From the NCBI GenBank assembly GCA_030390025.1, contig CM059431.1:124622001-124686000 (forward strand): 64,000 nt of DNA, in the 5' to 3' direction. This document shows positions 1-13,002 of this stretch, in pieces (position 1 is the stretch's first letter; every line of letters begins with the position of its first letter). The position numbers were made by a program, and so were the translations under genes. The notes under the pieces are model-generated. The model did no database searches and was not told the origin of the DNA. It saw only the letters and a program-made list of their open reading frames with translations. The DNA is from Squalus acanthias. Taxonomy: Eukaryota.

Positions 1-679
1 TTGAAGGTAAGCATGCAGGTGCAGGAGGCGGTTAAGAAGGCAAATGGTATGTTGGCCTTCATAGCGAGAGGATTCGAGTACAGGAGCAAGGATGTCTTGC
101 TGCAGTTGTACAGGGCCTTGGTGAGACCACACCTTGAGTATTGTGTGCCGTTTTGGTCGCCTTATCTGAGGAAGGATGTTCTTGCCATGGAGGGAGTGCA
201 GCGAAGATTCACCAGGCTGATACCTGGGATGGCAGGAATGACGTATGAAGAGAGATTGGGACGATTGGGCTTGTATTGGCTAGAGTTTAGAAGAATGAGA
301 GGGGATCTCATTGAAACTTATAAAATTCTAACAGGACTAGACAAACTAGATGCAGGAAGGATGTTCCCGATGGCGGGGGAGTCCAGAACCAGGGGTAAGC
401 CATTTAGGACTGAGATGAGGAGGAATTTCTTCACCCAGAGAGTGGTGAACCTGTGGAATTCTCTACCACAGAAGGCAGTTGAGGCCAATTCATTAAATAT
501 ATTCCAGAAGGAGTTAGATATATTTCTTCAGGCTAAAGGGATCAAGGGATATGGGGAGAAAGTAGGGACAGGGTACTGAATTTGGATGATCAGCCATGAT
601 GTCATTAAACGGCGGAGCAGGCTCGAGGGGCCGAATGGCCTACTCCTGCTCTTATTTTCTATGTTTCTATGTTTCTATA
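1..679 (+). mobile_element. CR1 LINE 3' fragment (ORF2 C-terminus, 3' UTR, (TTCTATG)n tail)
   Basis: ORF 1..579 has CR1 ORF2 C-terminal motifs ([42 protein letters not shown]); short tandem tail at about 655-679. Confidence 0.9.
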
Positions 680-1262: not shown

Positions 1263-1773
1263 GTTCACTTTCCAAGCTCAGAAGCTGTTGCTTACGGCAT
1301 TTGGAAGAAGCTTTGAGCTTTATGCAGGTTGCAAGTGTTTGGAGTAAAATCTGTATCCAATCTCATTGGAACAACCTCTCTCACCATTGAGAGATCGCTT
1401 CTGTCATCTCAATTTCACCTGCCATCTATTACATCAGCATCGGTGCCCTTGAAACTATCCCACCTTGGTCCTCGGAATCGCACCATGATCAGCCCCAACA
1501 CCAGTAGCACCTGGCACACCAGCAGCACCACCAACAACACCAACCTTCTCCACAATCAACTGATGTTGCACAGGACACAGGGCATCAGCACCTGACCACA
1601 TTGCTGCCCGGTACTCCAAAGATGGCCTCCCCATGGCCAGATTTACTTCACTTGATGCTGTAAACCCTGGCTGCCACAAGATGCGCCAGGTTGGCACCAA
1701 CCCGCACCAACACCATAAAGCATCCCTACAATGACCAAGCCATTCCTTTCACACTCATCACCATTGTGGGGGG

Positions 1774-3464
1774 TGTAAGGGTTTTGTCTCTCAGCCTGTG
1801 AGATTCGCGTGGCTCTGTGCAGCCCGGGTGCTAGTGCGGGTTTAGGCCTTGTTGCCTGTTCTGGTCTCCAGCCAGTCTGGGAGCACTAGACACACCTGTG
1901 AGTGGTTCGACCCACTCGCCCTTACGGTTCTAGACACTGGACTTAGATGCGAGAGCAGTAATGGAGATGAAACTCAGGTAGACTCGGTTGAATGGTACGA
2001 AATGGAAAATCTTTATTGCATAGTACTTAAGATTACGAAATACATGTCATACGCACAGATTAATGACAGTACAATCTTACACGCAGTTATGTAATTAATT
2101 TCAGGGAAACGAGGAACGAACGACACATCGTAAATGGGGACACACATTACAATTATCCTTAATACTTGAAACCCTCCCCTATCAATATCTGTCCTAAGCT
2201 AGATTCGTAGGATTCGAGACTCATGCTCACCACTCGTGATAACTCGGAGAATTCCGAAAACTCTGATCGGATGTTTTTCACCGCAGCGCCCACGTGTCGA
2301 TCAGGGAGTCTCCTGGCCCCACTTGTTTACTCGTTTCTGCTCCGGCTAGCAGGCTGGAACGTCTGCTGTCATGAAGATCTGTGTTGTCCTCGGAGTTCCG
2401 ACTCTACTCAAAAAAGAGTCTTCCTGTGCCCTCGCACTGATGCGATAAAATTCGAAGAAGAGTCTTCCTGTGTCAGTTCTGTAGAACTCAAAGAAGTCTT
2501 CCTGGCAAGGAAAATGTCTATTCGACCTTCAGGCGCGGTCGGGGCTTACTGACCGTGGCGATAAGTATGGTCTTCTTCTCTTCTCATCTCATCTCATCTC
2601 ATCTCATCTCATCTCGGGCCTTCGGTTCCAACACCGTTTACCGACTTATCGGAATGGTGCGCCCGCTTCAAGGCTTCAGAGCCCAGTTCTACACAGGTCT
2701 TCGCGACACGACACGAGGTAGATTCGAGCGGATCGTAAAGTTCAACAGTCTTTTGAAAAGAGACAAGAGGCAAGCAGGAACAAGACGGCGAGTCAAGAGC
2801 AGCCACGAGGATAAACACCAGCAAGATAAGAGAAAGATGGACGGTTGGAGCTTGTAATTATAGTGCAAAATCTTCCGTTTCCCGCCCAACCTTAATGTCT
2901 TCTCTTTTGTTAGGGTTTGGCGCTCAAATGTCTTGTATAGGGTGATCTTCGTTTTAATGGGTTTCGGGGCTACTCGTAAACGTCTGAGTACCTGTTAATA
3001 TTTCTCCCATTGTTTAATCGGTCGGTGTTCTCCCCGGAGGGGTTTTGGGGCTTCCAAGTGTTTTCTGTAACTACCCGCTAACGGCTCTCTCATCGTAGAG
3101 TCGTTGGGATTTTACATATTAATGTCTTTGGATGGGTTCTTGATTACTTGGTACAATAGCTTTTATTCGTACCTGGGAGACCGATTTCAGTATTTATGTG
3201 TATACTGTAAACCCATGATGTCTCGTGTATTATCTTAAATGTGCTGAGTCTTAATCGATCTTGCACAAATGTTTACTGGAACGCCATCTTGTCTGCCTGT
3301 CGAAAAGTCTAGAATGTTCTGCCACGAGGTGCGGCGGCCATTTTACAAGCTGCTTGTGTCCACTTTGAAAACCTGACAGCATTCCGCTGAAATAAAAGCT
3401 GTTTGAACGAAACTATGTGTTTTTCTCCTTATTAATAAAATCGCGATATATTGCGAATTCTACA
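1774..3464 (-). repeat. 3' LTR (1691 bp)
   Basis: TGTAAGG...TCTACA; near-identical to 9516-11206; minus-strand AATAAA at 2012-2017; internal (TCATC)n tract at about 2584-2614. Confidence 0.97.
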
Positions 3465-3476
3465 GTCCCTCCTGTT
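3465..3476 (-). promoter_or_regulatory. Polypurine tract
   Basis: Minus strand reads AACAGGAGGGAC immediately before the TGTAG start of the 3' LTR. Confidence 0.8.
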
Positions 3477-3911
3477 GATGCGAATAACTCCGCTTATCGT
3501 ATCAAAAATATTGTGGTGAGCAATATTATCTCGATTTCTCCAGATCCAGAAAATTAATCCCATAACTTAAACTATCTAGGGTCTTTGCGTCGTCCTTATT
3601 TCCCAAGAAAATTACATTTTATATCACCGTAGGCATCATTTGCCTTTAAACTTACACCACTTGTTTTCCTTCCAGGTGTAACCAGGCCGATGCCTCTCGT
3701 ATCACCTGTATATTCATCTTTTTATTTAGGGAAAGGAAAAACAAAACCCAAAACCAAACAATCATTTTTAACGACAACACCATCACCAAAATAACCAACA
3801 CCAACTCTCAACACATGTCGAGTTCCAAACGTATTTACAGTCTTTGAAAATCATGATCGAGTACAAACTTCCGCGGCGCACGTGGCAAGCGGGAGTGACG
3901 CCATTTTCCGA

Positions 3912-6263
3912 TCACACGGTGCTTTCGTCGTGCACGCGCACGTAACGTTCTCGCCACTCTCCCGTGTTTTCATGCTTGGTGAGGCGTTTGCCTCTTTTAC
4001 AATGTATGATCAATAGGTACACTACAATAAAAACTTGGCATACAACCAAAATGTGGGAGGCTATTCTGATCCATGAAGGTACTTCAATATTGGTGAACAG
4101 ATTCCACCACGGTGGAATTACTATATCCAGAATGTCTGTTCCTATTTCGACAGTTTTCTGTTCTAATGTGTAAAAATGTTTCTGTGACACCGCGACGGCT
4201 TTTAAAAGCTTGGTGAGGTGTTCAGGGAGAGGGGGAATGAGGTATCCGAAATGCGCGACGAATCGCTGCAAGTCGGTGAAATTCTCTTTTACTGTTAGAT
4301 GAACAGGGGATGGTTCAGGGATTGGGACAATTCGCTGTTGTGCTACTTGAACTTCCGCCCTGGGTTTGAAACAGAAACTGCTGTCACTCACCGGACACCG
4401 GCTACGGTTTCCATGCTGGTAGTGTTGCGCTGCAGTGGTAACACAATATGTTCCACCCCCGATGTATGCTACCTGCGGAGGCACATGATCTTGTGCCATT
4501 GCCTCCATGGTGCAATTCATGGACTTGGCGCCAGCCGTTCTGAACCCGCACTGTGGTGTTAAAAAGGCATTCAAGTGCTGGGGACACAGTATTATGTGTG
4601 CTCCCCTGCCACGACAACCAGAGAGATCTGTACCTGTCATCGTTTGCTCCCAGCGGAATGACGTAAGGTGGAACCGCTGCATAGCGAATGTGGGGTCCCC
4701 CCTGAATGACACCAATGTTCTCTACCCGATACACCGGGGCGGGCTTTGCTGTGTCGCCCAAAACCGGCATACGTAATACTATACCCATGATGGTATGGTT
4801 TGATCGTCCACAGTCCACGGGGACTGGGTATGCTTCTGAAGCTAGCCTGAGCTGGCACGGGCTTAATGCGTTCTGAAAAGGGTGGAGCGCCCGCAGGTGT
4901 TTGTTACTTATCCAGGACGGGACCAAACCTTGTTTTAAATCCTCCAAATTACTGCGGCCCTCGCCCAGTAACCACGCCCCGTAAAGCACGCACACCTCAT
5001 TCTGCGCAGCTTGATCGGATGCATTCCGATCTTCCCTAATCAGGGCATTTACCATCTTTGCATGTTTCTCCAACTCTGCTATAATTTCTTTTAAATGGAG
5101 AGTCATGGCTTGGTCCTCGTGTAAACCCGACCCAACCACTTTATTTTCATCTGTTAGAATGTCTTTTAATTGTGTCTTTAAACCATTAATCTGGGTCTGC
5201 AGCTCCACACTGTCTAGAGCGTTGACCACAGATGTACCCGTGTTAAAACCAGTGAACACGTCGTTCACTACACCCCTTCTTTGCCTCCCTACTTGATCCA
5301 AAACTTCATGTGGTGCGGTGTACAAACTTGTTTTATCAATTTCCGCGAAATCGAATTCGTAAAATTGTCTGAACATCTTGGTCAACAGGACCTGATATAA
5401 CTGTTCCGTCTTTTTGGGGCACCACTCTGGTAACCGCACCTCGGTGAGATTTAAAATCACCGAGGCCACCGCGTAATGTACCCCCTGAAATAGTATCTGG
5501 TCTGTGGGGACCAGTACCAAACCATTCCCGGGTCCCTTACTAGTTTTAGGGCACCCTTCCTCTTCAGCTAGAACCACCGGAATCGTGGGCGGGGCTTTGC
5601 GTGGGCGCGTAATGAGCTCAGTGGCATTTACCGGGATCGAAGAGTATGGGGCTCCGCACCCCCTGGTGCTCGCATCCCACCTCTTCCCCTGTCCGTTATC
5701 CTGCCATTGATTAATGAAAAATATGGAGATGCCTTTGGGGCAAGCGTACTTGGACCCCCACATGCATACATAAATTCCCTCATCCGGTTCCCACCATTTG
5801 TCCCAACAGACTCTCACTTGTCCGTTTGTCCCCGTAATTGTCCGATGGGTATTATTACCCAGTCGCTCCCACTCGACCGAAGAGTTCCTCATGTTTTTGC
5901 TCAGCTTTCGCAGCCACCACCATCGGCTCAATGGGACATTCCCACTACAAGTCAAACAAATCCGTTTGCCGACGGTGACGCTGATCCTAGGTGCGATGAT
6001 CCTTACTTTGGGGCACATTAAAGAAGTCTCTTGGTAGGCAACCCCGATGTGCTAGAATACTCCGTTGAGTTTGTTCCCAGCCATCCTGGCCACCTTCCCT
6101 TGTGGAAATAGGTGGTGGTCTCCTCAGCCTCCCGTCTTCCGGTCCCATGCACCGCGATGGGGGCCGTGTCCCCGGAGCATCCAAATACCACGACATCCTT
6201 GGTGCGGCCTCGATAGGCCAATCCACATCCGATTGCCGCGAGCAATACTAGAATTCGTTCCAT
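3912..6263 (-). pseudogene. env: env: signal peptide, Ig-like domain, F-type class I fusion protein, TM; about 780 aa when two frameshifts (about 6050 and about 4655) are repaired
   Basis: Signal peptide MERILVLLAAIGCGLA (ATG 6263); Ig motif LTC..W..DEGIYVC; RQRR furin site (5275-5286) followed by GVVNDVFTGFNTGTSVVNA and a heptad repeat; Cys-rich region; TM ILVVCQVFIVVYLLII; short tail. Built from ORFs 6018-6380, 4402-6018 and 3912-4715. Confidence 0.85.
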
Positions 6264-6554
6264 CCTTCCTTGGTTCCTGTGATCATATAGAATGAGGTAG
6301 CCAGCCTCGCAAGAGTCTCTGGCTTTTGTGAGGGGTGAGCGGGTCCCCTGACCTCGCCTCACGTAAACTTCAATGTTCACTGAATAAACTTTAACTAGAC
6401 CTATCCAAAACTCCCATCATTTTATCATTTTCTGTTAAAATTAAACTACAAACTTAACCTTATTTAAAACTATGAACTTATTACCTTAAACTTATAAACT
6501 TACAAACTTAAACTTATTACTGTACAGCGCCGCCCGTTCCCAGGGCGGCCCCTT

Positions 6555-7702
6555 TTAAATTCTGAGAAGGCTGCTGCGAGCTCTTCCCGACGGTGGGAGG
6601 GCACTGACCCCTTCCTTTGATCTGCCGCAGCCTGTTGCTGCTGCGATGGGACCGGGCCCTACCTGGGCTGCCTTAACCTTAAGCCTGCGCCTTGGGGCAG
6701 TCTGGGGACATGACCACATTTTCCTGGGCTGGGGTGCTCGACCTGACCTACGAGGAGTTGTCGGGGGCAGGAATCCCAGGACCGACGGACCGGGTTCCGA
6801 GACTTCCACCGGGACGACCTGTGGTCCCACCACAGTCGCTGGCTCCGCCCCCCCTGACTCCGCCTCCCTGACCTCGGGACTTGCAGCTTGTGGCACCGCC
6901 CTGCTCGGCCCAGCAGGCGGCCCTTCACTCGCAATCCCTACCTCCCCCGAGGGCAGGACGTTCAAGGTGGGCGGCTCGGGCTCTGAGGTTTTCACCGTCA
7001 CGCCCTGTGGTCTCACAGTGGCTGGCTCCGCCTCCCCTAGCTCCTCCCTCCTGTGTTCGGACCTGCAGGCTCGGTGTCCACCCTGTGTGGATCTCTATCT
7101 GCAGCCCCTGTCCTCCCTATACCTGAATCGGGGGCGACCCTTGCGTTCCCCGATTCCCACTCGTCCTCATCACTATCCTCATCTGACTCGAGTTCCAGGA
7201 ACTCTCCCTCATCTGACTCCCAACCCCACAAAAATGTTTCACAATTTTCCAGGATGTCTCCTCCCCTGATGCAAGCTGCTTTGCCTGCCTGTGTGCCTTG
7301 TGGTCCTACCTGGGGCTGCGAGTCCCCACTCGCAGGTCTGGCCCCTCCCCTAAGACAGGCCACCGCCCCTGCTTGTTTCTGTGAAATCTCACCTGCTGGA
7401 GGCTGCAGATTTCTATCCTGTTTTAAATCCTCATACTCCCTGCTCCTGGCTACCCTGTAGGCTGCTTTTATCTCTCTAAGCTGCCCTTCTAGCCTGAGCA
7501 CGTCTAACTTTCCCATTAAGCGGGCGTTCTCCTCCCGCAGGGCCTGCTCTCTAAGCTGCCCTTCCAGCCCATCTATTTTCCCTATTAAGCGGGCGTTCTC
7601 CTCCCGCAAGGCCTGCTCTTTTAACCTGGCCTCCTCACAGGAGACGCCCTCCTGTGCGTGTCTTTTAAAAGGACACAGGTAGGCAGGCTGCGTGGGCTCT
7701 AG
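6555..7702 (-). CDS. ORF2 in the pol position: coiled coil, acidic tract, Pro-rich repeats, RRSGR tail; in frame with gag; probable frameshift at about 7045
   Basis: Frame is open from the codon after the gag TGA (7702) through ORF 7037-7609 and probably joins ORF 6555-7016. No DTG/DSG protease, YxDD RT or HHCC/DDE integrase motif seen. Confidence 0.6.
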
Positions 7703-9511
7703 TCATTGGGTACTATTGGACGGGCCTGTGGCACCTACGGGGCCGGTAGCAACCGCCACTTTTCCATGCGCACTCATGAAGTTGCGCATGGCTCCCAACA
7801 CTGTTTCGAGGTCGTCGGGAGGGGTGGGTGCACTAGCTTCCCTAACAGAGACAGGCATCTGGGCTTGGGCTGCGGGATTTTTATCCCTGGAATCCTTCCA
7901 AGGGTTCCCGCAGTTCTTGCGCCAGTGCCCTGTCCTCCCACACCCGTAACAAGCATTACTTGCCTGCGGGGCGCGGTTACCCTCCTGATGCCACTCCTTT
8001 TGATCCGGGGCTGCGGGTCGTACCTCATGTACTTTTCCCTTAAGGGGACGTGTTCCCATACCCCTTATATTGCGATATCCTACCGTAAGTCGATTTAAGA
8101 CCGACTCTTCCGTAATGTTGGGGTCAGTGGGATCAAACCACGCTTTTGCCTGCTCTCTGACGGCTGGCAAACTGTTGGCTACTATACACCTGAGCCAATG
8201 AGTTAAACCGACGCCGTCCACAGCGTCGCGCTCTGGCGCACCTGGACAGCTGCGTTGATATACTGGCCACAGCCTGTCGGCAAAAACCTTCGGGGGTTCT
8301 CCCTCCATCTGCACTGTCTGTCCCAGTCTAGCAAACGGACCTTCATCGTCCGTCCCCAACACTTCTAGGACCTCATTTTTTAATGCCTCATATGTCTTGG
8401 TTCCCCTCTTGCTCTCGTCCGAGAGACACTGAAGGATTGAACTGCCTAACGAAAATAACAGCATTTTTGCTGTTTCCCCATCATCGCAGCCGTTAATGGC
8501 TGCGGTTTGCTCAACTTCTCTGAAGTGTACGGAAGGGTCGTCTGACTCGGTCAGCTTCCGTACGTGATTTATCATAACTCTCAGCTGGTGTGAGCTGTGA
8601 GGCAACACAAGCTGGTTGAGGAGAACCCCTGGTTCCTCCCCACCGTTTCTGTTTGGGCCCCTTTTTATACCCGTAACTGGACACAACGGTCCCTTTTCCA
8701 CTTCTTCCTCAGTGGGCTCTTTTGTTTCTTCTACTACTTCCTCCCTTACCCAGGTTTCCGACTAGCTGGGTGGCGCGGAGGGCGTAGTGGCTACTACTTC
8801 CTTTGCTTTACTTGGTGGGAATTTCTGAAACTCCTCATCTACTAGCGGCTGGTGTGCTGACGGACTGATAAGGCACACCATGCCGTGCGCTTTGTTCACG
8901 GCCCTTTTAAGGTGCACTATCTCCTTTTGGCAGGCGCTATGATTGGCCCCCTGGAATTTATCCTCAAGGGCCATCTTATATGCCGCCCTAACCCCCGTTA
9001 AGCTCTCTTCCTGGGCTCTTATTTGGGCAGCTTGGCGGGCACATCGTTCCTTTAGTCTGCCCTCACTTAACTTTGCCTCAGTGACCTGGCACTCGAGGTA
9101 ATCTATTTTTGCTTTGTGGTGACTGGTGATTTCCTGGCGTTCTCGGTGCAGCGCACTTAAATTCCTAATGAGCAACTCCCCTCCAGAGACCTTCTCATCC
9201 ATTTCCTCCTCTAAATGCCTGATCCGAGCTGTTTGCGCTGTAATGACCTGGTTTGAAATCTGGACCTGCCTTTTGTAACACATTAACCAGACTGCTTTCT
9301 CGACTGTCTTTTTATGTTCCTTACTATCTGTCCACCTCTCGGCTGCCTCTAGTGGACACTTATCCGCTAACAAGTCACTTATCCATTTTTTTGTTAAATT
9401 TACCTTTCCGAACACATAATCTGCGATCTTTTCCTGCATAACATTTCGTACATTCACACCAAAGTCTAACACACTACCCTCTCGCTGCCAGTGTCCTGCC
9501 GCGCTCGCCAT
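7703..9511 (-). CDS. gag: gag (602 codons) with one internal in-frame TAG at 8762-8764
   Basis: ORFs 8762-9511 and 7703-8701 share a frame and are separated only by one TAG. N-terminal coiled coil, PSAP (8771-8782), MHR-like QMEGEPPKVFADRL, zinc knuckle CYGCGRTGHWRKNC (7910-7951). Confidence 0.9.
9493..9510 (-). promoter_or_regulatory. Primer binding site, tRNA-Arg(TCG)-like
   Basis: TGGCGAGCGCGGCAGGAC, 5 nt after the 5' LTR; 17/18 match to the complement of the vertebrate tRNA-Arg(TCG) 3' end as I recall it (GTCCTGCCGCGGTCG+CCA). Confidence 0.85.
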
Positions 9512-9515
9512 CTTC

Positions 9516-11206
9516 TGTGAGGGTTTTGTCTCTCAGCCTGTGAGATTCGCGTGGCTCTGTGCAGCCCGGGTGCTAGTGCGGGTTTAGGCCTTGTTGCCTG
9601 TTCTGGTCTCCAGCCAGTCTGGGAGCACTAGACACACCTGTGAGTGGTTCGACCCACTCGCCCTTACGGTTCTAGACACTGGACTTAGATGCGAGAGCAG
9701 TAATGGAGATGAAACTCAGGTAGACTCGGTTGAATGGTACGAAATGGAAAATCTTTATTGCATAGTACTTAAGATTACGAAATACATGTCATACGCACAG
9801 ATTAATGACAGTACAATCTTACACGCAGTTATGTAATTAATTTCAGGGAAACGAGGAACGAACGACACATCGTAAATGGGGACACACATTACAATTATCC
9901 TTAATACTTGAAACCCTCCCCTATCAATATCTGTCCTAAGCTAGATTCGTAGGATTCGAGACTCATGCTCACCACTCGTGATAACTCGGAGAATTCCGAA
10001 AACTCTGATCGGATGTTTTTCACTGCAGCGCCCACGTGTCGATCAGGGAGTCTCCTGGCCCCACTTGTTTACTCGTTTCTGCTCCGGCTAGCAGGCTGGA
10101 ACGTCTGCTGTCATGAAGATCTGTGTTGTCCTCGGAGTTCCGACTCTACTCAAAAAAGAGTCTTCCTGTGCCCTCGCACTGATGCGATAAAATTCGAAGA
10201 AGAGTCTTCCTGTGTCAGTTCTGTAGAACTCAAAGAAGTCTTCCTGGCAAGGAAAATGTCTATTCGACCTTCAGGCGCGGTCGGGGCTTACTGACCGTGG
10301 CGATAAGTATGGTCTTCTTCTCTTCTCATCTCATCTCATCTCATCTCATCTCATCTCGGGCCTTCGGTTCCAACACCGTTTACCGACTTATCGGAATGGT
10401 GCGCCCGCTTCAAGGCTTCAGAGCCCAGTTCTACACAGGTCTTCGCGACACGACACGAGGTAGATTCGAGCGGATCGTAAAGTTCAACAGTCTTTTGAAA
10501 AGAGACACGAGGCAAGCAGGAACAAGACGGCGAGTCAAGAGCAGCCACGAGGATAAACACCAGCAAGATAAGAGAAAGATGGACGGTTGGAGCTTGTAAT
10601 TATAGTGCAAAATCTTCCGTTTCCCGCCCAACCTTAATGTCTTCTCTTTTGTTAGGGTTTGGCGCTCAAATGTCTTGTATAGGGTGATCTTCGTTTTAAT
10701 GGGTTTCGGGGCTACTCGTAAACGTCTGAGTACCTGTTAATATTTCTCCCATTGTTTAATCGGTCGGTGTTCTCCCCGGAGGGGTTTTGGGGCTTCCAAG
10801 TGTTTTCTGTAACTACCCGCTAACGGCTCTCTCATCGTAGAGTCGTTGGGATTTTACATATTAATGTCTTTGGATGGGTTCTTGATTACTTGGTACAATA
10901 GCTTTTATTCGTACCTGGGAGACCGATTTCAGTATTTATGTGTATACTGTAAACCCATGATGTCTCGTGTATTATCTTAAATGTGCTGAGTCTTAATTGA
11001 TCTTGCACAAATGTTTACTGGAACGCCATCTTGTCTGCCTGTCGAAAAGTCTAGAATGTTCTGCCACGAGGTGCGGCGGCCATTTTACAAGCTGCTTGTG
11101 TCCACTTTGAAAACCTGACAGCATTCCGCTGAAATAAAAGCTGTTTGAACGAAACTATGTGTTTTTCTCCTTATTAATAAAATTGCGATATATTGCGAAT
11201 TCTACA
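9516..11206 (-). repeat. 5' LTR (1691 bp)
   Basis: TGTGAGG...TCTACA; about 5 substitutions versus 1774-3464 found by eye; adjoins the PBS. Confidence 0.97.
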
Positions 11207-13002
11207 GGGGTACCGTTAAGTCTCACCATTCACTGCAACTCACTAAGCCACTTCCAAAGGCTCACACAATTCTGTCTAAGAACGCAAAGTGTTGAAAATA
11301 AAGGTTTCAATGTTTAACAACACATTAACAGAAACTTTACATGAACATTGCATAAAACACCCAAGTGCCTTCCCTTGTGTGTTGTTAGTTTGTATGACTG
11401 GACTAAGATGAGGGTGAGTGTGAGCTGTGGTTAGTGAGATGAGGAAGTGATAATGTAGGTAGAGAGGGATGGGTGGAGTTGCAAGGTAAGTTGGTGTGAG
11501 TAAGGATGTGCAGGAGTAGGGTAGGGAAGGCAGAGTGATGAGGATGTGATGAGAGACACAGCAGGATGAGGTTGAATGGTGGGGTCGCGACACCGCTGCT
11601 GGCTCCATCCCGCTTTTGAAAATGGGGCCTAATAAGCCCGCCCAGCGCGTTACCCGGTCCAATTATATGGTGTGGGTCTGGTGATGTCACTCATGATGCC
11701 AGGATCTTTAAATGGTCCATGGCTACATTAGATTTGAAGTTTAATCTCGCAGAGTGCAGTCAGTGCATTAGAGTGCTGCAAACACTGACAATGACTGCAC
11801 AGAAGCAGAGGGCTGCACCCAGGTTCTCTGCTGACTCCCTGCATATGGAGAGAGTCAGAGCACGCAGGGAGGTCCTCTCCCCTTCCGATGGGTGGAAAAG
11901 ACCTCCCCAGGAGACCAAAACAGATTGGTTGCAGATTGCAGAGGAGGTCACAAGCAGGAATGTGGTCAGGAGGACCTGGGTGCAGTGCCACAAATGCTTC
12001 AATGATCACATTAGATCAGGAAACAATAGTACAAAGCCACAGTCAACCTCATCCTGCTGTGCCTCTCATCACATCCCCATCACTCTGCCTTTCCTACCTT
12101 ACTCCTGCACATCCTTACACACACCAACTTACCTTGCACCTCCATCCATCGCTCTCTATCTACATTATCACATCCCTATCTCACTAGCCACCCTTCACAC
12201 TCACCTTCATCCTAGTCCAATCATACCAACTAACAACACAAAAGGGTAGCCACTTGGGTGTTTTATCCAATGTTTATGAAAAGTTTCTGTTAATGTGCTG
12301 TCAAACATAAAAAATCTTTATTTCCAACACTTTGCGTTCTTGGACAGATTTGTGTGCACCTTTGCAAGTTGCTTAGTGAGTTGCACTGAATGGCGAGATA
12401 TAATGATACCCCCCGCAATGGTGATGAGTGTGAAATGAATGGCTTGGTCATTGTAGGGATGCTTTATGGTGTTGGTGTGGGGTGGTATCAATCTGGCACA
12501 TCATGTGGCATTCATATGGGTGCACAGCTTAAAGTTACTAAATCTGGCCATGATGATGCCATCACTGGCCTCCCAGGCAGCAATGTGCTTGGGTGCTGAT
12601 GCCCTCTGTCTTGTGCAGCATTGGGTAATTGCAGAGAAGGTTGGTGTTGTTGGTGCTGCTGGTGTGCCTGGTGCTGCTGGTGTTGAAGCTCATCATAGTC
12701 CGATTCTGAGGACCAAGGTGAGGCAATATAAAGGGCACCCATGTTGATGGAATAGATGACATGATGTGGAGATGGAATAGATGGCAGACGAAGTACAGAT
12801 GATAGAACCATTCTGTCAATGGTGAGAGAGTTCTTCCAATGAGGTGACACTAGATGGAGACTTTGCTGGAAACACATGCAGCCTGCAGAATCTCTGCTGG
12901 AAATGGATTGATCAACAACTTCTGCCTGAGGAAAGTGATCATCTGTCAGGTGGGAGCTTTCACTGAACATTTGATGCTGTCAAGTAATCAGTTGGAGGAA
13001 TG

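Follow-up and report, generated by a model that had tools for sequence, protein, structure and literature searches.

F-type class I fusogens are the textbook case of fusion proteins that depend on a separate protein for attachment; the paramyxovirus-type F works with such a protein or binds through its own head. An envelope protein (Env) resembling the F protein of Mononegavirales has been published for the lokiretroviruses, according to the accessible text of the report (Wang and Han, Mol Biol Evol 2020/21, PMC7947760). Use of an F-type fusogen by a retroelement is likewise known, and the accessible part of that preprint describes vertebrate and invertebrate elements without homology (10.1101/2023.10.26.564294). 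According to the available portion of a 2021 preprint, the beta/gamma classification was made without epsilonretrovirus Env, and modelling of its surface subunit (SU) failed (10.1101/2021.11.05.467493). Here we describe the env gene of a long terminal repeat (LTR) provirus in 64,000 nucleotides of Squalus acanthias DNA (GCA_030390025.1, contig CM059431.1, positions 124,622,001 to 124,686,000; "the window"). The original prediction for this stretch, made from its letters, held that an immunoglobulin (Ig) domain captured from the host is built into the N-terminus of a class I fusogen. With moderate confidence we read the segment as a real, selected Ig-like domain of V/I-set type, located in the F2-equivalent surface subunit of a retrovirus-like F-type Env and most likely serving as a built-in attachment module.

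The literature search gave no paper joining lokiretrovirus with immunoglobulin, or walleye dermal sarcoma virus (WDSV) with envelope and immunoglobulin-like. The terms "immunoglobulin" and "Ig-like" occur 0 times in the accessible parts of PMC9040795, PMC13709493, 10.1101/2023.10.26.564294 and 10.1101/2021.11.05.467493, and "immunoglobulin" occurs 0 times in those of PMC7947760 and PMC12440569. F-like retroviral Env is already known; an Ig-like N-terminal module on such an Env was not found in the literature searched.

Reading frames and fusion core of the Env

The Ig motif strings quoted in the original prediction are indeed present, on the minus strand, in the env gene of the provirus. "DVVVFGCSGDTAPIAV" lies in the minus-strand frame 6018-6416; "RISVTVGKRICLTCSG...WWWLRK...EPDEGIYVC...KGISIFFI" and "ITRPRKAPPTIPVV" lie in the minus-strand frame 4402-6051. 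The env ATG is at window position 6263, and position 5713 corresponds to Env residue ~184. Env features, numbered on an intact 783-aa copy (P0004), are as follows.

3912-6263, minus strand: env, in three frames in the window copy, located by tblastn of the intact Env P0004
6207-6263, minus strand: signal peptide, Env residues 1-19, hydrophobic MERILVLLAAIGCGLAYRG; modelled helix at residues 2-17
6019-6206, minus strand: conserved N-terminal segment, residues 20-82, containing the first frame change of the window copy
5689-6018, minus strand: Ig-like domain (V/I-set type), residues 83-192, with C106, W117 and DEGIYVC167
5554-5688, minus strand: Cys/Pro-containing linker, residues 193-237, with an NAT sequon and a non-conserved RPRK
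5275-5553, minus strand: F2-like region, residues 238-330, opening at a CP-x-GP-x-GL motif and closing with RQRR
3915-5274, minus strand: F1-like region, residues 331-783, with fusion peptide, long helices, beta-rich head, stalk helix, anchor and tail

The three frames of the window env cover residues 1-86 (6263-6006), 74-536 (6045-4657) and 536-783 (4658-3915). The first frame change falls at residues ~74-86 (window ~6006-6045) and the second near residue 536 (~4657). Because of the first change, the window copy itself does not join the Ig-like domain to the signal peptide.

Other copies were sampled by a six-frame search of the 3.7-Gb assembly with the window's 549-aa frame; 80 matches were listed, and 79 of 13,296 first-look candidates were scored. 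Fifty loci were examined: the window (L001), the 29 best matches (L002-L030), a set picked for open frames of at least 847 aa (L031-L040) and a set picked for low identity (L041-L050). In 10/10 of L031-L040, env is one open frame that includes the Ig-like domain (783 aa, or 793 aa in L040). The segment is therefore translated with env, as the original prediction had assumed. In 28 of the 29 best matches a single frame runs from Env residue 1 to residue 522 or beyond; L021 has the same first frame change as the window env. The predicted position of the domain between signal peptide and F2-like part thus holds for the intact copies but is interrupted in the window copy. All 29 best matches shift frame within Env residues ~520-575, like the window; an env-defective lineage has therefore multiplied. 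Most of these 29 env frames finish in a common out-of-frame tail (...LPAWKP). The open copy L040 reads ~35 residues of the 520-575 stretch in that same alternative frame.

Contigs of four runs of unspecified kind span the whole env stretch including the Ig part; such contigs cannot show transcription or splicing. At L031:1269, upstream of env in the pol tail, contigs of three public runs (X3, X5 and X7) end with the same foreign 30 bases. This 30-mer is absent from the window; a splice junction or a frequent deletion variant could account for the break.

That the Env is a class I fusogen of the F type was borne out by structure. The full-length AlphaFold2 (AF2) model, built from a 45-sequence alignment, had a mean predicted local distance difference test score (pLDDT) of 60.5, with 75-91 over residues 240-300 and most of 420-650; the F2-like residues 240-300 were also recorded at 73-89. 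The top 50 Foldseek matches in the PDB were all paramyxovirus/pneumovirus F proteins (E 1e-10 to 6e-8), and 231 matches had E<=0.001. The matching solved F chains, at 416-482 aa, are too short for an N-terminal module, which agrees with the earlier statement that paramyxovirus F has none. Helices were modelled at residues 334-371, 391-444, 679-712 and 730-766. The expected F-type features are all present: a polybasic site (RQRR, residues 327-330) directly followed by the hydrophobic peptide GVVNDVFTAFNTGTSVVNAL, long helices, a C-terminal stalk helix and a membrane anchor (residues ~732-754, window ~4002-4070) with a short tail behind it. Cysteines C425, C550, C560, C584, C607 and C631 are invariant, and the F2-like part has C238 and C282. 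In total P0004 carries 23 cysteines and 10 N-glycan sequons; the predicted N-terminal subunit of ~310 aa has 5 sequons.

At the sequence level, PF00523 gave no match at E<=1 on 6 full-length family members, and no F protein emerged when the PDB was searched with a profile of the full-length Env alignment A2; the F-likeness therefore comes from structure only. A PDB profile search with alignment A1 was dominated by zinc-finger matches from the chimeric record P0011 and was uninformative on Env. The best matches in BFVD were arlivirus and lispivirus glycoproteins, baculovirus F, paramyxovirus F0 and the Envs of two exogenous epsilonretroviruses, those of walleye epidermal hyperplasia virus 1 (WEHV-1; E 6.7e-14) and WDSV (E 4e-11). 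This suggests that epsilonretrovirus Env, as modelled, shares the F-type fold class.

The Ig-like domain and its constraint

Residues 83-192 very probably have an Ig fold. The original prediction gave a Cys spacing of about 61 residues, and the B-strand C106 and F-strand C167 are exactly 61 residues apart, inside the ~55-75 expected of V/I-set domains. W117 is an invariant alignment column within the 10-15 residues after the first Cys where an Ig Trp is expected. The D-x-G-x-Y-x-C motif is present as DEGIYVC at residues 161-167 and aligns with DEGVYKC of CRTAM. C106, W117 and DEGIYVC167 are kept in 50/50 genome copies; none of the 50 has an indel in the aligned part, and 2 have a stop. The triad is also kept in homologues from skate, sawshark and a metagenome record. 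The domain has three extra cysteines (C103, C153 and C175).

When a 10-sequence profile was compared with the PDB, the best match was the CRTAM V domain (E 0.0087; next match 0.015). The alignment covers 93/101 residues (profile 12-104, chain 7-98) with Cys, Trp and DEGxYxC in register, and IgSF (Ig superfamily) adhesion proteins account for 6 of the 10 matches at E<=10. The only Pfam family seen on residues 83-192 was Ig_3, below cut-off: E was 0.0085 for a homologue of 51% identity and 0.25-0.31 for the window and intact Envs. All ten named language-model neighbours belong to the Ig clan (scores 0.88-0.90), which we treat as a lead only.

In the AF2 model of residues 1-235, strands 88-97, 102-107, 116-120, 132-135, 141-146, 149-154, 164-167 and 180-185 form a sandwich of low confidence. 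By entry title, Foldseek matches of this model were mostly antibody-variable or IgSF chains (best E 0.023, none <=0.001). A second look with VIA gave a best Z of 5.9 (root-mean-square deviation 3.0 Å, 87 aligned), with 38 chains at Z>=5 and none at Z>=8. A Foldseek-independent search of 48,161 representative chains had a best Z of 5.7, and its 50 best rows were almost all Ig domains, including those of LAG3, obscurin, myotilin, titin, embigin, TREM-1 and IgNAR.

The ratio of non-synonymous to synonymous change (dN/dS) was estimated by the Nei-Gojobori method, by region, for ten copies each compared with L031. The ratio was below 1, as had been proposed for a functional domain: the Ig region gave 0.08, 0.08, 0.08, 0.09, 0.05, 0.13, 0.16, 0.11 and 0.11 at dS 0.20-0.98, i.e. 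0.05-0.16 in 9/10 comparisons. L040 gave 0.61, from 3 synonymous and 7 non-synonymous changes only. Values were 0.04-0.10 for the F2-like region (L040, 0.57) and 0.03-0.12 for F1. The conserved 63-aa segment upstream had 0.06-0.22 in 8/10 comparisons, the remaining two resting on 4 and 10 changes, and the linker was also under constraint. As judged from these substitutions, the Ig-like domain is under purifying selection, constrained as strongly as the fusion core. Together with this selection, the Ig triad indicates a motif pattern that is more than chance.

Identity to skate proteins was 70-72% for the Ig domain, 71-76% for F2 and 87-91% for F1. The Ig domain is thus less conserved between species than F1, and behaves like a surface subunit. 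In comparisons of L041-L046 with L031, dS was 0.65-0.98 in residues 83-331 (Ig and F2-like) and 0.39-0.49 in residues 332-783 (F1). This difference along env may reflect recombination between env lineages.

Several results weigh against this reading. No Pfam Ig family reached cut-off: with a cut-off of 30 bits, Ig_3 reached 12.0-12.3 for the window and intact Envs and 17 for the homologue P0013. An hhalign comparison of the domain profile (Neff 1.7) with 20 host V-set exons gave a probability of 4% and aligned strands A'-B-C only. The AF2 model of residues 1-235, from 13 sequences, was poor (mean pLDDT 36.6); the alignment of this N-terminal part is shallow, which accounts for the poor first model, and word-index searches for further homologues gave 2, 2 and 8 matches only. 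In the full-length model the Ig-like region had pLDDT ~50-61. All structural Z scores were <8, a middling range that is common for unrelated models. All dN/dS comparisons were made against a single reference, and five draw on the same divergent subfamily; they are thus not independent of each other. Finally, two related Envs, P0039 and P0050, have no N-terminal module: the family-wide CP-x-GP-x-GL motif, which begins at residue 238 in this Env, is at 22-23 in these proteins, right after the signal peptide. The fusogen can therefore exist without such a module.

The missed Pfam threshold, the hhalign probability, the low pLDDT and the Z scores would all fit a different beta-rich domain in which the Cys/Trp/DxGxYxC pattern is coincidental. 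We consider this quite improbable, because independent methods converge on the Ig clan alone, and because both the CRTAM alignment and the predicted strand order span the whole domain with key residues in register. The Ig identity claimed in the original prediction is upheld by the triad, the CRTAM profile and the Ig-like structural neighbours, but it misses the Pfam cut-off and the models are of low confidence. The Ig reading is supported by several weak to moderate lines that agree, and is not proven.

A second, degenerate Ig domain had been suggested for the stretch upstream. This was judged on length, motifs and AF2 models only, and is not supported: the segment of 63 aa is too short, lacks the Cys-Trp-Cys triad, and appears in the models as two or three short strands leading into a low-confidence or disordered stretch. 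Strands ~31-45 pack onto the sandwich in the low-confidence model. Among 13 sequences, G63, N65, S66, S70, S71 and Y77 of this segment are invariant and R57-W58-P59-G60 nearly so. On the other side of the domain, pLDDT was <50 over residues 171-234 in the full-length model, which includes the linker. The RPRK of the linker, pointed out in the original prediction, was discarded as a second cleavage site, since relatives have RPSK, RPRI and RPRT at this place.

Relatives of the Env and proposed role of the module

The closest public proteins are from skate, sawshark, whale shark and other sharks. Searching 1.84 billion representative proteins exhaustively with phmmer, using the whole Env as query, gave 50 proteins at E<=0.001. 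Matches covering residues 1-235 were all env homologues, from cartilaginous fishes or from records without a species label, except for one bacterial repeat protein (P0054). The latter matched residues 21-88 at E 0.001 through low-complexity sequence and was rejected as a relative. Skate, sawshark and whale-shark records share the same Ig-like domain, at 38-78% identity. More distant full-length Envs align from residue ~221-235 on only; these are from Mustelus, Chiloscyllium, the frogs Pelodytes and Mantella, and Logan records. The Mantella/Pelodytes relatives comprise 16 cluster members.

The N-termini of these relatives differ. Ig-like patterns were found in P0016, P0022, P0037 and P0051: P0037 has a V-set match at E 0.045, the shark homologue P0016 bears the automatic UniRef name "Ig-like domain-containing protein", and 9/10 named atlas neighbours of P0051 are in the Ig clan (0.84-0.86; a lead only). 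P0015, P0026 and P0034 have a Cys-rich N-terminal module instead. A maximum-likelihood tree was built from 11 rows of the Env core and midpoint-rooted for drawing only. Ig-like modules fall on either side of its root; the window's clade has the Cys-rich clade as its sister (100/100), and one module-less Env pairs with an Ig-bearing Env (97/95). MAFFT could not align the Ig-like N-termini across the four distant lineages. The distribution fits an old Ig-like module that was later replaced and lost in some lineages; alternatively, Ig domains may have been captured repeatedly.

Pieces of this env lie within the sawshark gene models P0006 ("Niban 1-like") and P0011 ("zinc finger protein ZFP2-like"); P0011 includes the N-terminal segment as well as the Ig domain. 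Chimeric gene models are one possible cause, exonised fragments of an endogenous retrovirus another.

The original prediction of a captured host domain did not hold up in the form of a recent event with an identifiable donor gene, which we regard as highly improbable. In favour of such a capture, V-set exons abound in the host genome (at least 150 of 2831 candidates score above cut-off) and the domain has canonical IgSF motifs. However, the phmmer search of the whole Env found no host donor among the 1.84 billion representative proteins, returning for residues 1-235 only the env homologues and the spurious bacterial protein, and the 20 host V-set exons compared by hhalign were unmatched. The same domain is shared with skate, sawshark and whale shark, and Ig-like N-termini seem to be present on both sides of the midpoint root. 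Since they also seem to occur in distant shark and frog relatives, any capture would be old or repeated.

For the domain itself, we infer an attachment (receptor-binding) or decoy role, and favour attachment. Removal of the signal peptide and cleavage at RQRR330 would leave an Ig-bearing N-terminal subunit tethered to an F1-like subunit; C425, C550, C560, C584, C607 and C631, plus C238 and C282, are candidates for the link. Because a retrovirus has no separate attachment protein, the Ig-bearing subunit would supply attachment and receptor binding, a role played by HN/H/G for paramyxovirus F and by SU for retroviral Env. In the F structures of parainfluenza virus 5 (PIV5) and respiratory syncytial virus (RSV), the F2 N-terminus is in the membrane-distal head. 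A module fused at this end would point away from the viral membrane, which would suit receptor contact.

Related Envs carry an Ig-like module, a Cys-rich one or none, so the module would be an exchangeable accessory placed before a conserved fusogen. Extending this, we tentatively propose that the Ig-like cassette is an ancestral, exchangeable receptor-binding module of a vertebrate-wide F-type retroviral Env family (sharks, rays, frogs), structurally akin to epsilonretrovirus Env, and that it was kept, swapped for a Cys-rich module or lost by lineage.

Two other roles were considered. The module might be structural or regulatory, capping the prefusion trimer or controlling triggering, with the F-like head binding the receptor, as the pneumovirus F can do through its own head. 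The module-less lineages P0039 and P0050 and the constraint on the 63-aa segment and linker would suit such a cap. Swapping among Ig-like, Cys-rich and no module is more typical of receptor-binding parts, however, and the lower conservation of the domain than of F1 between species (the skate comparison above) points the same way; we consider a cap unlikely. Somewhat less likely still is an immune decoy or immunomodulatory role, in which the domain would engage a host immune ligand or screen the fusogen against antibodies. Large DNA viruses commonly encode Ig-like immunomodulators, the nearest solved profile relative, CRTAM, is an immune-cell adhesion receptor, and some related Envs do without any N-terminal module; but the domain is covalently fused before the fusogen rather than secreted, and the constraint on it equals that of the fusion core.

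If the attachment reading is true, this would be a paramyxovirus-type fusogen with its own attachment domain. The env family is young in this genome, with near-identical LTRs and many open env frames, so the receptor could be identified. Lokiretroviruses with F-like Env are known, and their mode of cell attachment is not described in the accessible parts of the literature searched. A conserved Ig-like domain before the F2-like part would offer a testable answer on attachment and would show modular exchange of entry domains.

The provirus in the window and comparison with known systems

The provirus that carries this env has the following layout.

1774-11207, minus strand: LTR provirus carrying the env of interest
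9516-11207, minus strand: 5' LTR, 1692 bp, TG...CA ends, 99.7% identical to 1774-3465
1774-3465, minus strand: 3' LTR, 1692 bp, TG...CA ends, from pairwise LTR comparison and reading of the ends
7703-9532, minus strand: gag (coiled-coil N-terminus, capsid-like part, CCHC knuckle), open reading frames (ORFs) 8762-9532 and 7703-8761 with a stop near 8762
7347-7670, minus strand: ~325-bp stretch in place of ~3.66 kb of pol (protease, reverse transcriptase, RNase H, integrase), from comparison with L051
6434-7346, minus strand: C-terminal tail of the pol frame and pol-env spacer, from blastn to L051 and L031; ORF 6555-7094

The two LTRs have 5 mismatches over 1692 bp. CCCC is common to both flanks and is a possible 4-bp target duplication. 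The zf-CCHC and DUF7041 matches of the window gag are weak. Window 11206-7671 aligns with L051 1890-5409, and window 7346-6434 with L051 9073-10000. The ~325-bp replacement of pol sits in a coiled-coil repeat frame (LEGQLREQALREENARL..., ORF 7037-7702). The window copy is dead, with a stop in gag, pol deleted and env in three frames. Since pol is deleted yet the LTRs are 99.7% identical, the provirus has the look of a recently mobilised, non-autonomous derivative.

A full copy, assembled from L051 and L031, has a 591-aa gag frame, a single in-frame stop, a 1495-aa pol frame and then env. A gag and pol in one frame split by a single stop is the arrangement of gamma- and epsilonretroviruses. The pol domains are RVP, RVT_1, RT_RNaseH_2/RT_RNaseH, RNase_H, Integrase_H2C2 and rve; the full copy thus has a dual RNase H (tether plus RNase H) within an LTR-gag-pol-env order. 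The dual RNase H is the layout of retroviruses and lokiretroviruses in the accessible text of PMC7947760 and PMC9040795. The reverse transcriptase part gave no match when used as a query against viral contigs.

Beside the provirus, window 1-579 and 732-1106 hold reverse transcriptase fragments of CR1/L2-type long interspersed nuclear elements, on both strands. A 356-bp inverted repeat of 82.6% identity occupies window 1423-1774 and 12408-12758; one arm adjoins the 3' LTR and the other is 1.2 kb past the 5' LTR. The provirus may therefore be nested inside another repeat.

Compared with known systems, the core fold is that of paramyxovirus/pneumovirus F (human parainfluenza virus 3, 1ztm; PIV5, 2b9b; RSV, 3rki; Nipah, 5evm; also Hendra), over 430-554 aligned columns, and the polybasic cleavage site followed by a hydrophobic peptide is alike. 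These F proteins differ in their ~10-14% identity and in lacking, in the solved chains, an N-terminal module. Insect errantivirus Env, baculovirus F and the arli/lispivirus glycoproteins are of the same fold class (BFVD ranks 1, 4-6, 10, 11, 13 and 27), but their hosts are invertebrates. The CRTAM/nectin-like IgV domains (PDB 4h5s and 3rbg) are the best profile matches of the Ig-like domain (the two top E values above, marginal in score); the env domain adds its three extra cysteines, and there is no sign of descent from CRTAM. The epsilonretrovirus Envs of WEHV-1 (Q9WHI8) and WDSV (A4GTG3), as predicted structures in BFVD, are among the best viral structural matches. They are longer (1317 and 1159 aa, respectively), and the likeness is one of predicted structure. 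The present env family gives a structural hint that these Envs are in the same fold class, and it extends such Envs to genomes of the cartilaginous-fish type.

Another close described system is the lokiretrovirus Env. In the accessible parts of PMC7947760 no N-terminal Ig-like module is described for it, and the hosts listed do not include cartilaginous fishes. The two Envs are alike in signal peptide, RxKR-type cleavage site, fusion peptide, coiled coil and anchor, and both go with a dual RNase H pol; according to the accessible text, lokiretrovirus hosts include amphibians, and frogs carry relatives of the Env described here.

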